Source: Massalongia carnosa
Taxonomy: Eukaryota
Direction of reading: 5' to 3'
Assembly (NCBI GenBank): GCA_965645245.1
Contig: OZ287071.1
Span: 1,984,001 to 2,048,000, forward strand
Length of the DNA stretch: 64,000 nt
The translations under genes were made by a program, and so were the position numbers. The notes under the pieces were generated by a model, which saw nothing but the letters and a program-made list of their open reading frames with translations, was not told the origin of the DNA and did not search any database. Positions 534 to 29,521 of the stretch are shown here, piece after piece. Numbering within the stretch: the first letter of the stretch is position 1; every line of letters starts with the position of its first letter.

Positions 534-687
534 ATCGGTGGTCCTCCTTCTACACCATCGGTCCTCCTCCTTCTACACCATCGGTCCTCCTCCTTCTACA
601 CCATCGGTCCTCCTCCTTTTACACCATCGGTCCTCCTCTTTCTACACCATCGGTCCTCCTCCTTCTACACCATCGGACCATCGGTCC
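534..687. repeat. 23-bp tandem array (CCATCGGTCCTCCTCCTTCTACA)n at the left end of element X
   Basis: About 6 units here, about 2 at 10836-10892 and about 10 at 27596-27840. Confidence 0.95.
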
Positions 688-1134
688 TTATAACGGAGAC
701 GCCAAAGGCCTCACCGTGGGGCGAACGTCAAATATATTGATTTGCTCCTATCTCTTTGCATCAAAACAATGCTAATTTAACGCGTTTACACGCGTCGCAG
801 ACGTACGTACGGAAGAGGATACGAAGGCCAACCGCCGGGGGTAGAATGCGCGCGTCCCTGCACCATGCTTCTAAGGGTTCAAGTCCCTTTATGCAGTTAT
901 CAGCTGGAAGAAGATGTGGACCAAAGGAGCCGCATCATCCCCCACCCGGGCACAGTCGACACGCGTTCTAGCTCCTGAGAGTTCAAGTCTACCCATGCAG
1001 TCATCAGCTGGGATCAACAGATCGCGTAAAGGCACCGGGGCAAATGCTGTCACCTCAAGAAAACTCCATCTCGGAGCAGAATAAAAATATCCCATTTAAT
1101 AGGACCGGCCTGTTAAATAAATCGTGGAAAACAG

Positions 1135-1265
1135 AGAGTCACAAAACACATTGTCATCAATTATACGTTGTACAAAGTACACAGTTACAAAGCACACAGT
1201 CACAAAGCACATAGTCACAAATATACAGTCATAAAACACACAGTAACAAAAAATACAGTCACAAA
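1135..1265. repeat. Degenerate ACACAGTCACAAA minisatellite inside element X
   Basis: Repeated CACAGTCACA units; variable copy number at 11335-11497 and 28265-28380. Confidence 0.85.
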
Positions 1266-2215
1266 TCAATAACACGTCCCTGTGAAGGGGGTTCTGCGGG
1301 GGCTCGTTAAGACAGATCTGCACCCCGTTAATATCGGAATACATATTTTTAGAGGTTCAAGTCCTATTTAGCAGTCATTAGCTGAAAATAATGTATTTTG
1401 ACTCGAGCATGGTTTGGATTTCACTCGGGTAGACCTCGATGGATCACAAAACGAATGAAAAGAGTTCAGCTGAACTTCGTTAATATTGTTCTCGAAGACC
1501 TCGTTAATAAGATTTTCATAGACCTCGTTAACAACGTTCGGTCCTACTATTAAAGGTTCAATTCCTTTCATGCAGTTATCGGCTGAGAGCTAAAGAAGTA
1601 CGACACGGGTCAGCTATTTCTATCTCACGGGTCTCCTTCGTCTACAACACGGAGCCCTCCGGCTGAAAGAAATAAAACATATGGACACATAGAGTAGGGT
1701 CACACCCTACACGATACAAGAGATTTAGGTTATGAAAACTATCCGATTAATGGCTACCGTGAGCAACACGGCCCGAACCGGAGTCGTACCGGGGATGGTG
1801 GAGGCAACCTAGTCATTAAATAGGACACCCTTGGGACAAGAAGAGGGCAATATACGAGGAACCCGTTAATTGATAACAGTCTAGGCCCTGAGCTAATAGA
1901 CGAATTTCAAACGAGCACCCCTCCGAGTTGTCTTCGACTCCTTTTGTGCGCATGTCGGTGTATATAGAGCAGGAAATGTCTATCTCGCTCGTAACGAGAC
2001 CCCGTCGGTTCGCCGGCGCATGGGCTACGGCTAGACTCGCCCTTGATATATGCTTAAGGAGTAAATTGGGTTCGACTTGGGCAAAAGGGACGTCGTTTAC
2101 CCCGATCGTAGAATTCATCAACAGTCTTGGGCCGTAAAACGCACCAGTAAGATGAACAAAAACTGGGATAGAGACTTCACAAAGGAGATGTCAAATCTAT
2201 TTTATCACTCTTAGT

Positions 2216-2335
2216 CCGATTTGAACTAATCGCATCTTTCAAAAATTTGACGTTACAAGCAACAGCATTTTCGAATAAATACAATTGCAATAAAGCCGAT
2301 TAGAATAAATTCGCGAAGTATCTAGACGAAAATTC
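2216..2335 (+). mobile_element. Short LINE-A ORF2 fragment (end of endonuclease region)
   Basis: Matches 7070-7190 and 12997-13112. Confidence 0.8.
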
Positions 2336-2341
2336 AACCAT

Positions 2342-25615: not shown

Positions 25616-25627
25616 GGGCTCATAACC
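25616..25627 (-). other. Primer-binding site complementary to the initiator tRNA-Met anticodon arm (half-tRNA priming)
   Basis: GGTTATGAGCCC immediately after the 5' LTR; same sequence at 57081-57092. Confidence 0.85.
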
Positions 25628-26769
25628 TGTTGAATAGGTCTATGACTATGGCTATATGACTATGTAAAGATAGGGGCCTGTATGACCATGATGTTAAGGA
25701 TGCAGAGTTGCTACGGAGTGCAGAGCAATCTGTTCCTTTATCTTGGTCACCTCTGCTAAGCGAGATGATAATAGTTTATCCGAGCCTCTATGCGCTTAGA
25801 TTAGATCTGATATTATCTAATCTATCGGCTAGGCAATGCTGGTAGAAGTTGAACATTCAACATCAAATGACTCTTTCTTTCCTATCCCTATTTATTTGAA
25901 TATAACGCGTCAATAAATCCTAATCGGGTTAAAATAGACCGTTCCGCGCTAAGGCAGTAGGTCTGATTTAACCCTTTACCAGACACTACAATAAGTGAAA
26001 ATAATTAAAATTTTTTTTTGTTTTTTTCGATAACAATATATTTAATGCAATGCTACATAATACGAGACTTCCTATTCTGATTAATCTGAAACAGGACCTT
26101 TGGTATAATCCTATTCCAGATATTTTTCCCCTTCTTTTCAGTGATCTGTTGACCGGCTGTTCAACGAAGATCGATAAAGCCAAAAATAGAATGTGCAATA
26201 TTATACGTGAAATATACTGTGAAAAGTTGTGCTTGCGGAAGTTCCCGTAACCTTAAATGAGGAATAAACTTTAGAAGACTTTGACGTCGCGACAGTTGTT
26301 GTACACTACCGCGAGAGTAGATATTTTTTGTAGATAATTCTTATAGTAGTAATTGAAGGTCTTGCGACAAAAGAACAGAAGAAAATAAGAAAAAAAAGCG
26401 ATTTTTGGTGATATTGTTGGTATTTGTTGTTTTTTCCAACTTCTAGAGCGCGCTTTATCACGTCGGTCGCGTGCGACTAGCAGAAAAACTCTGCTGGAGC
26501 TTTGCTAGAGCTCTCCTGCACTCAATCTGAGAGCGGTTTTGCTCTGGAGAGGCTCAAATGACTGAGAAATAGAGGCTCAATTGACTTTTAAAGTTATAGT
26601 GTATCAAAAGTTGCGGTACTTGTATTTCGATAGGTGTCCCCTGTTTTTACTTAAGTGACGAATCATGGTTTCTGTAGGTGCTTTGTCTATCTTGGCCAGT
26701 CGTAGGTGCCATGTTCATAAAACTGGTAGGTGTTTTCTGTACTGGTAGGTGTTTTCTCTACTGGTAGGA

Positions 26770-27415
26770 GTTAAATATTCAACAAGTTTATTGTCAAAAC
26801 AAAAATCGCTACTAGAAATGGATACTAGGTCAGCTAGAAGACGAAATTGTCGAAACGGGAGGTTAGGGAGTGATCGAACAGTAAAATCAGATTTGATTTA
26901 TGCTGAAACATTTACGAACTTTCCTAAGACAAATTGTAAAATCGAAATTTCGATTACTATTGATTGTTAATAACACGGAGTAAAAACGGGGCAAAATACA
27001 CGATTCATAGATTGTTTATAAAGGGTTGATTTATATATATTATAGAAACATATCCTTAAATAGTTTAATGTTATAACCTTAGGTTGAATACACTTAATTA
27101 AAAATAAAATAAAAAAAAGCTTTTTGACCTACATAGTTGCCATTGATTCGTCCATGTGTTTAGCGTATTTTGATGACTTTAACTTTTCAAATAGTCAAAT
27201 GTGATCGCTGAGGACTCCGCTAGGATTTTATAAAACCATAGAAGTCGTCGTCGTGTGAAATCGAATTTCAAATCGAAAGTCAAAAGAAATAGCAAAATCA
27301 TGTTATTTTATTTTAATCTATTCATTAAGTGTATTCAACTTAAGGTTATAACACTAAACTATTTTAGGATATGTTTCTATAATACAAAAAATCAACCCTT
27401 TATAACCCATCTATG
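26770..27415. mobile_element. Jumble of LINE-A 3' fragments in both orientations
   Basis: 3'UTR and tail on + (26770-27118); inverted RNase H and 3'UTR pieces after it. Confidence 0.75.
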
Positions 27416-27547
27416 ATGTTTCGCGCCGCCGGCACGAGAGACTATCAGCAGCTGACCAAATCATCAAAATTTCTGAAGATACTAACTGCTTGGTTAATGA
27501 AAACAGGCTTATAGAATCAATTCTAACTAGCATCAACATTATTATAA
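27416..27547 (+). pseudogene. C-terminus of a LINE ORF2 related to family B
   Basis: Translates MFRAAGTRDYQQLTKSSKFLKILTAWLMKTGL*NQF*LASTLL*, which aligns with MLRTAGSSDYRKLITEPEALKVVTAWLMRTGILTQYSIATQLL in ORF 45352..45639. Confidence 0.75.
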
Positions 27548-27595
27548 AATCAACAATAGTTGAACCTTTCTTTCTTTCTTCTCTTTTCACAAAGG

Positions 27596-29521
27596 GGTCC
27601 TCCTCCTTTCTACACCATCGGTCCTCCTCCTTCTACACCATCGGTCCTCCTCCTTCTACACCATCGGTCCTCCTCTTTCTACACCATCGGTCCTCCTCCT
27701 TCTACACCACCGGTCCTCCTCCTTCTTCACCATCGGTCCTCCTCCTTCTACACCTTCGGTCCTCCTCCTTCTACACCATCGGTCCTCCTCCTTTTTCACT
27801 ATCGGTCCTCCTCCTTCTACACCATCGGACCATCGGTCCTCACCGTGGGGCGACCGTCAAACATATAGATTTGCTCCTATCTCTTCGCATCAAAACAATG
27901 CTAATTTAACGCGTTCATACGCGTCGCAGACGTATGTACGGAAGATGATACGAAGACCAACCGCCGGGGGTATAATGCGCGCGTCCCTGCACCATGCTTC
28001 TAAGGGTTCAAGTCCCTTCATGCAGTCATCAGCTGGAAGAAGATGTGGACCAAAGGAACCGTATCATCCCCCACCCGCGCACAGTCGACACGCGTTCTAG
28101 CTCCTGAGAGTTCAAGTCTCCCTTTGCAGTCATCAGCTGGGATCAACAGAACGCGTAAAGGCACCGGGGCAAATGCTGTCACGTCAAGAAAACTTTATCT
28201 CGGAGTAGAATAACAATATCCCATTTAATAGGCCCGGCCTGTTAAATAAAATCGAGGAAAAAAGAGAGTCACAAAACACATAGTCATCAATCACACGTTG
28301 TACAAAGCACACAGTCACAAAGCACACAGTCACAAACATACAATCACAAACGCACAGTCACAAAACACACAGTCACAAATCAATAACACGTCCCTGTGAA
28401 GGGGGTTCTGCGGGGGCTCGTTAAGACAGATCTGCACCCCGTTAATATCGGAGTATATATTTTAGAGGTTCAAGTCCTTTCTAGCAGTCATCAGCTGAAA
28501 GTAATGTATTTTGACACGGGCATGGTGTGGATTTGACACGGGTAGACCTCGATGGATCACAAAACGAATGAAAAGAATTCAGCGGAACTTCGTTAATATT
28601 GTTCTCGAAGACCTCGTTAATAAGATTTTCATAGACCTCGTTAACAACGTTCGGTCATACTCTTAAAGGTTCAAGTTCTTTTATGCAGTCATCGGCTGAG
28701 AGCTAAAGACGTACGACACGGGTCAGCTACGTCTATCACACGGGTCTCCTTCGTCTACAATACGGAGCCCTCCGGCTGAAAGAAATAAAACATATAGACA
28801 TATAGTGTAGGGTCACACCCTACACGATACAAGAGATTTAGGTTATGAAAACCATCCGATTGATAGCTACCGTGAGCAACACGGCCCGAACCGGAGTCGT
28901 ACCGGGGATGGTGGAGGCAACCTAGTCATCATAGAGGACACCCTTGGGACAAGAAGAGGGCAATATACGAGGAACCTGTTAATTGATAACAGTCTAGGCC
29001 CTGAGCTAATAGACGAATTTCAAACGAGCACCCCTCCGAGTTGTCCTCGACTCGTTTTGGTTAGTAGGGACGGAAAAGCGATACTATACTGTCTGGTCAG
29101 GAGCATAGTAGTCGAAATCCCTGCGAGACATGGTCGGTTCATAAACGGGAGACCTTTATGAATAACGCGAAGTGGGCGTAAAAAACCCGTGAGGCGTGGT
29201 ATGCAATGGCGGCCACCGTAGGGAGACCGTCTGCATAGCCCGAGAGGTTAGTATTCGCATGTCCGTGTATATAGAGCAGGGAATGTCTATCTCGATCGTA
29301 ACGAGACCCCGTCGGTTCGCCGGCGCATGGGCTACGGCTAGACTCGCCCTTAATATATGCTTAAGGAGTAAACTGGGTTTGACCTGGGCGAAAGGGACGT
29401 CGTTCACCCCAATCGTAGAATTTATCAATAGTCTTGGGCCGTAAAACGCATCAGTAAGATGAACGAAAACTGGGATAGAGACTTCACGAAGGAGATGTCA
29501 ACTCTATTTTATCATTCTTAG
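27596..29521 (+). mobile_element. Element X copy 3
   Basis: Colinear with copies 1 and 2; longest tandem array; same 3' end, fused to LINE-A. Confidence 0.88.

Follow-up and report, generated by a model that had tools for sequence, protein, structure and literature searches.

A non-coding repeat with a fixed 3′ end and a predicted conserved RNA structure is fused to differently truncated LINEs in fungal DNA, probably by template switching

In this work, we analysed a stretch of 64,000 nucleotides from Massalongia carnosa (GenBank assembly GCA_965645245.1, contig OZ287071.1, positions 1,984,001–2,048,000 of the forward strand), referred to below as the window, in which a non-coding repeat of 1.7–1.9 kb, named X, stands directly ahead of 5′-truncated copies of a long interspersed nuclear element (LINE), LINE-A. 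The species is represented here by the three X copies of this one window, and X-like sequence was also followed into metagenome loci. The results indicate that the X-LINE units are probably chimeras of the MINE type known from Magnaporthe, generated by microhomology-assisted template switching of a LINE reverse transcriptase onto the 3′ end of an X RNA. An earlier, sequence-only reading of the window had proposed that X spreads by joining LINE-A RNA, and this mechanism is now supported by a target-site duplication around one whole X-LINE unit, by the recurrence of the same architecture in the metagenome loci, and by AG microhomology at the joints.

The three copies, X1 (534–2214), X2 (10836–12640) and X3 (27596–29521), all on the + strand, are collinear in a MAFFT alignment (A1) and in the self-BLAST of the window. 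X1 matched X3 (27663–29525) in two blocks at 91.4% and 93.3% identity and X2 at 90.9% and 91.4%, and the identity of X2 and X3 was 91.2% across 1824 bp; with substitutions only being counted, the three copies are 93.3–94.8% identical. Just as the sequence-only reading had it, all three start in an array of 23-bp units and stop at TCTTAG. According to Tandem Repeats Finder (TRF), the array comprises 10.1 copies in X3 (27596–27828, +), the most complete copy with 10 units, 6.2 copies in X1 (534–676; ~6 units) and ~2 copies in X2 (10849–10892), whose 3′ domain is complete. The 5′ ends all lie inside the array, each at another phase of the unit. A segment of 195 bp present in X2 and X3 is absent from X1 (alignment A1), and because it falls in the conserved structured core described below, X1 is regarded as a deletion form. 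The lack of a poly(A) tail, long terminal repeats (LTRs) and terminal inverted repeats (TIRs), also claimed earlier, was borne out, with no A-run at the junction and no flanking LTR or TIR pair in the self-BLAST. We considered and rejected the possibility that X is a tRNA-derived short interspersed nuclear element (SINE): ARAGORN found no tRNA or tmRNA in the window or in 12 metagenome loci, the element is 1.7–1.9 kb long, and its junctions are variable. Only the loop of the hairpin module of X (see below) may resemble a T loop or B box.

Positions in LINE-A are given below as equivalent window positions in the reference copy (4749–10617, +), which has an open reading frame (ORF) 1 from ~4776 and an ORF2 with endonuclease, reverse transcriptase and RNase H domains (Pfam, self-BLAST). 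Judged by its domain order and not by a tree, LINE-A is probably Tad1-like; for a fragment of its ORF2, the nearest named relatives are from Lasallia pustulata (~41% identity) and Sclerotinia, and further relatives without a name are 78–94% identical. In agreement with the sequence-only reading, LINE-A follows X directly and in the same orientation but is entered at a different point in each unit, namely at 7070 (X1), 6717 (X2) and 7646 (X3). The LINE-A part fused to X2 extends from 12641 to 16552 (+), up to an A/T-rich tail (self-BLAST, Pfam), with 96.3% identity between 12637–16524 and LINE-A 6713–10608. The one fused to X3 (29522–31689, +; equivalent 7646–9824, 95.9%; self-BLAST, Pfam) is split by the later insertion of a 6.3-kb LTR retrotransposon (31689–38014, −; LTR at 37713–38014, gypsy-type pol at 33614–36559), beyond which the rest of the LINE with its A tail is found (38014–38813, +; equivalent 9819–10617; self-BLAST). 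X1 is followed by an ORF2 fragment of 123 bp only (2215–2337, +; equivalent 7070–7192, 87.8%; BLAST), and downstream of 2337 no LINE match was obtained by BLAST or by blastx (2215–3500 against LINE proteins, nothing significant). This fragment is followed, in the X1 unit, by 1.1 kb without assignment (2338–3470), ending in an A-rich run at ~3455–3470; this segment could be a third RNA partner, making a tripartite chimera, or could result from a later rearrangement.

The flanks behave as the earlier reading described. There is no LINE-A continuation upstream at the junctions, the 5′ flank of X2 being LINE-B (~81% identical to LINE-A) and the flanks of X3 being a patchwork of LINE fragments and gypsy gag, and the self-BLAST found no X sequence after the LINE tails. 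Just 5′ of X3 (27119–27416), short LINE-B-like pieces alternate in orientation, and this patchwork resembles the outcome of twin-priming or of repeated template jumps. Spliced LINE copies with alternative 3′ acceptors were excluded as an origin of the variable entries because LINE-A has TTA, TAA and AAA, and not AG, ahead of the three entry points.

To find X elsewhere, we used as a metagenome query its hairpin module, which consists of a 5-bp stem, a TTCAAGT loop and then GCAGTCATCRGCTG, all 12 matches in the window falling inside X. In X3, four modules (at 28006, 28110, 28468 and 28669) lie within the region 28006–28698 (+). The stem of the module is considered real because it is fully paired in 22 of 31 distinct variants, whereas 1000 trials with shuffled arms gave 8.9 fully paired variants on average and never more than 15. 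The search returned 46 rows, corresponding to 45 distinct loci, and loci representing the same place in different assemblies were merged (L001=L038, L002=L036=L037, L016=L044, L018=L024, L008=L022, L005=L032=L034). The 3′ half of X was found in 40 of the 45 by an nhmmer profile of 862 positions, and 32 reach position 700 or beyond. BLAST identity of the loci to X3 is 59–73%, and their LINE proteins are 23–31% identical to those of LINE-A. Among sequencing runs listed for the words of X, no RNA run appeared, and DNA runs containing 0.32–0.63 of these words bore four organism labels and one lichen-metagenome label; no conclusion is based on them. The loci having been chosen by the X motif, the frequency of LINEs without X is not readable from them. 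A metagenome scan with the last 25 bases of X gave no matches, and neither did a strict core pattern run against viral and prokaryote collections; the latter blanks are weak because the pattern recognises no more than 4 of the 45 loci and, of the three copies in the window, 2. Internally deleted mini X-like forms were seen at L012:7840–8350 and L011:7993–8300; they retain the hairpin modules, the start of structured domain I (see below) and a ...CCTTGG or ...CGTTGG end. Another X-like copy (L034:2731–4109, −; =L005, L032) lies in gene-rich DNA with ORFs for a Zn2Cys6-type regulator and a tyrosinase-like protein on either side; it has a core insertion of ~300 nt, and its downstream partner is not recognisably a LINE.

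The window contributes 3 distinct junctions and the loci 22, giving 25 in all; of those in the loci, 12 belong to a subfamily named XJ (13 insertions) and 10 are others, including the internally deleted L012. At all 25, the terminus of X is constant, being TCTTAG at the three window junctions and the homologous ...YCTT(G/A)G at the 22 in the loci. In each readable locus the X-like sequence stops there, and the copies diverge from the very next base, no shared sequence past the X end being seen; an apparent shared extension in L019, L033 and L034 proved to be an insertion of ~60 nt ahead of the usual ...CCTTGG end. The position on the LINE side, by contrast, varies. Homology confirmed the LINE partner at 20 of the 25 junctions, and the partners are 5′-truncated LINEs of several families. 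In the XJ subfamily, X is joined to LINE-J at −727, 0, 1067, 2721, 3740 and 3766, to LINE-K at 0, 1282, 1297 and 1349, and to a third LINE at 0 and 145, and every XJ-LINE alignment extends from the base immediately following X as far as the (TAAT)n tail of the LINE. Elsewhere, ORF2 is entered near amino acid 309 (L011), 629 (L042), 655 (L045), 663 (L029) and 724 (L010), and in L008 the entry lies ~380 nt ahead of ORF2. The junctions of L001 and L031 are identical although the two insertions are different, which suggests that chimeras may be copied again.

The X2 unit provides evidence that the two parts were inserted together. It interrupts a 5′-truncated LINE-B, whose left part (10617–10836, +) is equivalent to LINE-A 8691–8910 and whose right part (16554–18257, +) is equivalent to 8900–10617 (self-BLAST). 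The unit is bracketed by a 12-bp duplication, GATTATTCGAAA at 10825–10836 and GATGATTCGAAA at 16553–16564, which are identical at 11 of 12 positions, and LINE-B resumes exactly there. This allows us to conclude that X and the truncated LINE were inserted as one retrotransposed unit. Among six metagenome units examined, whole-unit duplications were clear in four (L001, 11 nt; L031, 9 nt; L025, 12 nt with one C/T difference; L028, 14 nt) and ambiguous in L015 and L042, which have AT-rich flanks. Thus, the expectation of the sequence-only reading that duplications would bracket X plus LINE held for X2 and for these four units, but not for X1 and X3.

The bases at the joints bear on how they were made. 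The first LINE base at the 25 distinct junctions is C in 19, T in 4, A in 1 and G in 1. At the 12 junctions for which a longer LINE reference was available, the last two excluded bases of the LINE are AG in 6, TA in 4 and AA in 2. The excluded AG equals the terminal (A/G)G of X, giving 1–2 nt of microhomology at half of the referenced joints. A jumping reverse transcriptase would use such microhomology and a ligase would not, and template switching is therefore favoured over ligation. An X RNA whose 3′ end had been processed might instead have been joined by a tRNA/RNA repair ligase to LINE RNA fragments bearing a 5′-OH, with the product then being retrotransposed. We consider this unlikely, though it is the rival that fares best. 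The DNA product expected is identical, with the X end fixed, the LINE entered at variable points and duplications present; joining by RtcB has been reported for U6/LINE-1 (PMC6789731), and 6 of the 12 referenced junctions are without AG microhomology. But ligation gives no reason for AG at the other six, and nothing in these data points to a cyclic-phosphate end on X.

Whichever of the three LINE families they are joined to, XJ copies are 93–96% alike, whereas LINE-J and LINE-K are 67–71% alike. X is thus not co-diverging with the LINE, which speaks for X RNA forming a pool of its own. Furthermore, the 5′ ends of XJ lie 1644–1964 nt from its 3′ end, most of them at 1948–1964, and this clustering is consistent with an RNA whose 5′ end is discrete, some copies being 5′-truncated. 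These data also tell on the explanation that X is the LINE's own 5′ untranslated region (UTR) or promoter module, with X + ORF1 + ORF2 as the full-length unit and the chimeras as derivatives that have lost internal sequence. The tandem modules in the 5′ half of X are indeed like LINE promoter monomers, L003 has X ahead of a LINE of ~5.2 kb that begins near the expected start of ORF1, and the LINE-A reference copy is nearly devoid of a 5′ UTR of its own (at most ~28 nt). However, deletion leaves the constant left breakpoint at 25 of 25 junctions unexplained, a single XJ population is found on three LINE families that are at most ~71% alike, and the LINE-A reference copy has no X ahead of it, so that this explanation appears improbable.

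The 3′ half of X (~700 nt) is predicted to be a large conserved structured RNA of a widespread, old fungal family. Alignment A2, comprising 15 sequences (3 from the window and 12 from loci of five subfamilies), has long near-invariant blocks, and RNAalifold predicts for it 120 pairs in 23 helices, 61 of the pairs with compensatory changes. The predicted structure was compared with versions in which the pairing partners were slid by 1–3 columns and with 500 shuffles. Paired cells amounted to 96.1% (35–44% when slid), pairs changed on both sides numbered 61 (8–17), cells changed on both sides 209 (17–28), and the covariation score was 0.406 (0.071–0.119); none of the 500 shuffles reached any of these four values, the counts being those of an alignment to which transitions like those of repeat-induced point mutation (RIP) add noise. 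In single-sequence folding, the 3′ 742 nt gave z = −2.68, and the 5′ half of X gave z = −0.26. In X3, the structure is divided into domain I (28807–28946, +; consensus helices 1–7) and domain II (29056–29507, +; helices 8–23, including the long-range helices 8, 11 and 19), followed by an unpaired pyrimidine-rich 3′ tail of 14 nt (29508–29521, +) ending in ...CTTAG. This tail, which reads UUCUU or UCCUU, might form pairs with an invariant AAGGA at 29374–29378, within GCUUAAGGAGUAAAC, and at the homologous columns of A2; such pairing would bring the X 3′ end into the core. The resulting pseudoknot with the AAGGA of GCTTAAGGAGTAAAC is plausible by eye in most subfamilies, but its partner is invariant and it is thus without covariation support, and it was not retained.

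Rfam 15, whose models cover group I and II introns, GIR1, RNase P/MRP, telomerase RNA and small ribozymes, gave no match at the gathering score in the window, X3 itself having only chance-level matches (E ≥ 0.24), and none at E ≤ 1 in five loci. Nor was there, for X as a telomerase RNA or as a ribosomal DNA (rDNA) spacer or 5′ external transcribed spacer, a template-like run of telomere repeats by eye or a match to rRNA, and no description of an X RNA was found in the literature searched. The 3′ domain might be a ribozyme that cuts X-LINE transcripts after the terminal G, or that attacks LINE RNA through its 3′ G-OH in a manner like reverse splicing. A large, conserved, multi-helix domain with long-range helices would suit it, as would the terminal G being retained in every subfamily not blurred by G-to-A changes, and a solo X being nowhere seen. 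We nevertheless hold it to be very improbable: no Rfam ribozyme or intron model matches, the three excluded LINE dinucleotides listed above yield no single guide-like consensus, and no catalytic core was identified.

As for X being a repeat that LINE-A targets, with insertion exactly after TCTTAG, the fixed upstream sequence and variable 5′ truncation are typical of site-specific LINEs (R1/R2 in rDNA and Tx1L in Tx1D are parallels), but the duplication around the whole X2 unit rules out insertion of the LINE into an X target, X2 + LINE-A and four XJ + LINE units being bracketed by duplicated unrelated host sequence, no X continuation following any LINE tail, and the LINE-A reference copy and LINE-B standing at other kinds of sites, which leaves this explanation with practically no chance.

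Taken together, these data lead us to infer that a free X RNA with a ...CUU(A/G)G 3′ end exists and that the joint with the LINE is made by reverse transcriptase and not by ligase. In the mechanism that we propose, X RNA would have a 5′ half with tandem repeats and four hairpin modules and a structured 3′ half of ~700 nt with an unpaired tail ending in ...CUU(A/G)G. A Tad-like LINE (with endonuclease, reverse transcriptase and RNase H) would be reverse-transcribed at a nicked target; the reverse transcriptase would leave the LINE RNA at an internal point, often with 1–2 nt of microhomology, and would then continue on the 3′ end of the X RNA. Integration of the chimeric complementary DNA would give the order duplication – X – LINE 3′ part – tail – duplication. 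As to the source of X RNA, we lean towards X being a hitch-hiker that depends on LINEs and whose transcripts come from its own retrocopies; that it is instead a host RNA gene appears possible but distinctly less likely. The former is rated above the latter because no solo copy was seen, the 5′ modules are tandem, and one junction was re-copied.

Several observations weigh against template switching as the origin of the X-LINE units, or against the accompanying view of X. The LINE part of X1 is just 123 bp and is followed by sequence without explanation, and no duplication was visible around the X1 and X3 units when it was sought. No partner was identified for L009, for L019 (with 123 nt available) or for L034/L005/L032; blastx of the sequence downstream of L009 and L034 against LINE proteins gave nothing significant, and Pfam found nothing in the downstream ORF of L034. 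The partners in L033 and L012 are without homology support: in L033, two CCHC knuckles seen by eye make the partner look like ORF1, Pfam finding nothing on the ORF, and the L012 partner was not searched. The LINE part of L003, beginning roughly at the expected ORF1 start, also fits X as a 5′ UTR. On the structural side, further pair types (130 observed, 43–62 in the slid versions) were matched by 130 of the 500 shuffles, and the A2 structure was predicted on the same alignment in which the changes were counted, several of its rows being close relatives. Finally, no solo X was present among the three window copies or in the loci, which were selected by motif, and a solo locus may exist elsewhere.

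The remainder of the window is repeat-rich fungal DNA with copia- and gypsy-type pol, a DUF6589 ORF and several LINE ORFs, the latter carrying Exo_endo_phos_2, RVT_1 and RNase_H (Pfam). Inverted ends of ~390 bp (143–367 plus 3495–3650 versus 4355–4748) mark a DNA transposon remnant, the left end of which is split by a 3.1-kb insertion (368–3494) that includes X1; the remnant holds a 233-amino-acid ORF (3641–4342, −) that is transposase-like by eye and has no Pfam hit. Two copia-type elements (19507–25862 and 51450–57327) are 97.7% alike and contain 72-bp tandem arrays (24814–25193 and 56207–56658, respectively). The first of them is probably recent because its 235-bp LTRs (19507–19741 and 25628–25862) are 100% identical. 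The DUF6589 ORF (59948–61468, +) adjoins an ORF with DEAD and Helicase_C domains (61824–63293, −), and 58772–63293 may be a mobile element.

More speculatively, and with a probability that we put low, X and perhaps WEIRD, the 5′ partner in MINE, might represent a class of obligate 5′ hitch-hiker retroelements, which would bear a promoter and whose structured domain would make or present the 3′ end and capture the LINE reverse transcriptase. If so, the domain might act by self-processing after the terminal G, which is invariant, or might dock on the LINE ribonucleoprotein, X would spread only by fresh joining to LINE RNA being copied, and it might give LINEs a portable promoter. The question thus arises whether a structured RNA can spread by recruiting a LINE reverse transcriptase or by processing itself, and whether this is a route by which LINEs gain new 5′ ends and promoters. 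For annotation, X + LINE units are better not split into a repeat and a LINE fragment.

X can be compared with several known systems. SINEs with LINE-derived tails likewise have a LINE-dependent non-coding head that carries a LINE 3′ end, but all members of a SINE family share a single fixed junction of head and tail, whereas nearly every X insertion has a new one; moreover, X is far longer and has no tRNA according to ARAGORN. The 5′ ribozymes of non-LTR elements (HDV-like in R2 and others) and the hammerheads of Penelope-like elements are also structured RNAs on the 5′ side of a retroelement, where they might set an RNA end. They are ~50–200 nt long and cut at or near their 5′ side or internally, unlike X with its domain of ~700 nt, its defined 3′ end and its lack of an Rfam match.

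The chimeras of U6 and other small nuclear RNAs with LINE-1 in mammals are closer. These RNAs are reported to be fused to variably 5′-truncated LINEs with flanking duplications (PMC2104539, PMC6789731), and U6/L1 thus shares with X an RNA with a defined 3′ end, a truncated LINE in the same orientation and the flanking duplications. However, U6 is an established host gene whose function is known and whose solo copies are numerous, while X is without a known source gene; X, unlike U6, has promoter-like repeats and several LINE families as partners. Furthermore, U6/L1 is attributed to RtcB ligation, whereas the microhomology of X points to template switching.

The closest resemblance is to MINE of Magnaporthe grisea/oryzae, which consists of WEIRD and the LINE MGL. 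Its description (PMC2104539) gives 31 MINEs with 28 junction sites and no solo WEIRD, flanking duplications of 10–20 bp and six pairs with a common junction; at the junctions, the excluded LINE bases carry a GCC motif and microhomology is reported to be absent. Like X, WEIRD is, by this account, a non-coding 5′ partner of at least ~1 kb with a constant 3′ end, joined at many positions to a 5′-truncated LINE, with duplications around the whole chimera, elements with a common junction and no solo 5′ partner. Compared by description and not by sequence, X differs from WEIRD in being longer (1.7–1.9 kb) and in having tandem hairpin modules, and its junctions differ in having AG on the excluded side in 6 of 12 cases and C as the first LINE base in 19 of 25. 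As far as that description goes, MINE-type chimeras were previously known from one fungus, with the nature of the 5′ partner unsettled. The present data add this chimera architecture in another set of fungal genomes, unrelated to the first, with a 5′ partner that appears to be an old, conserved and widespread family joined to several LINE families, with microhomology at the joint and promoter-like modules, and with a large predicted RNA structure, a domain of ~700 nt that has many compensatory changes and covariation support and no catalogued relative.

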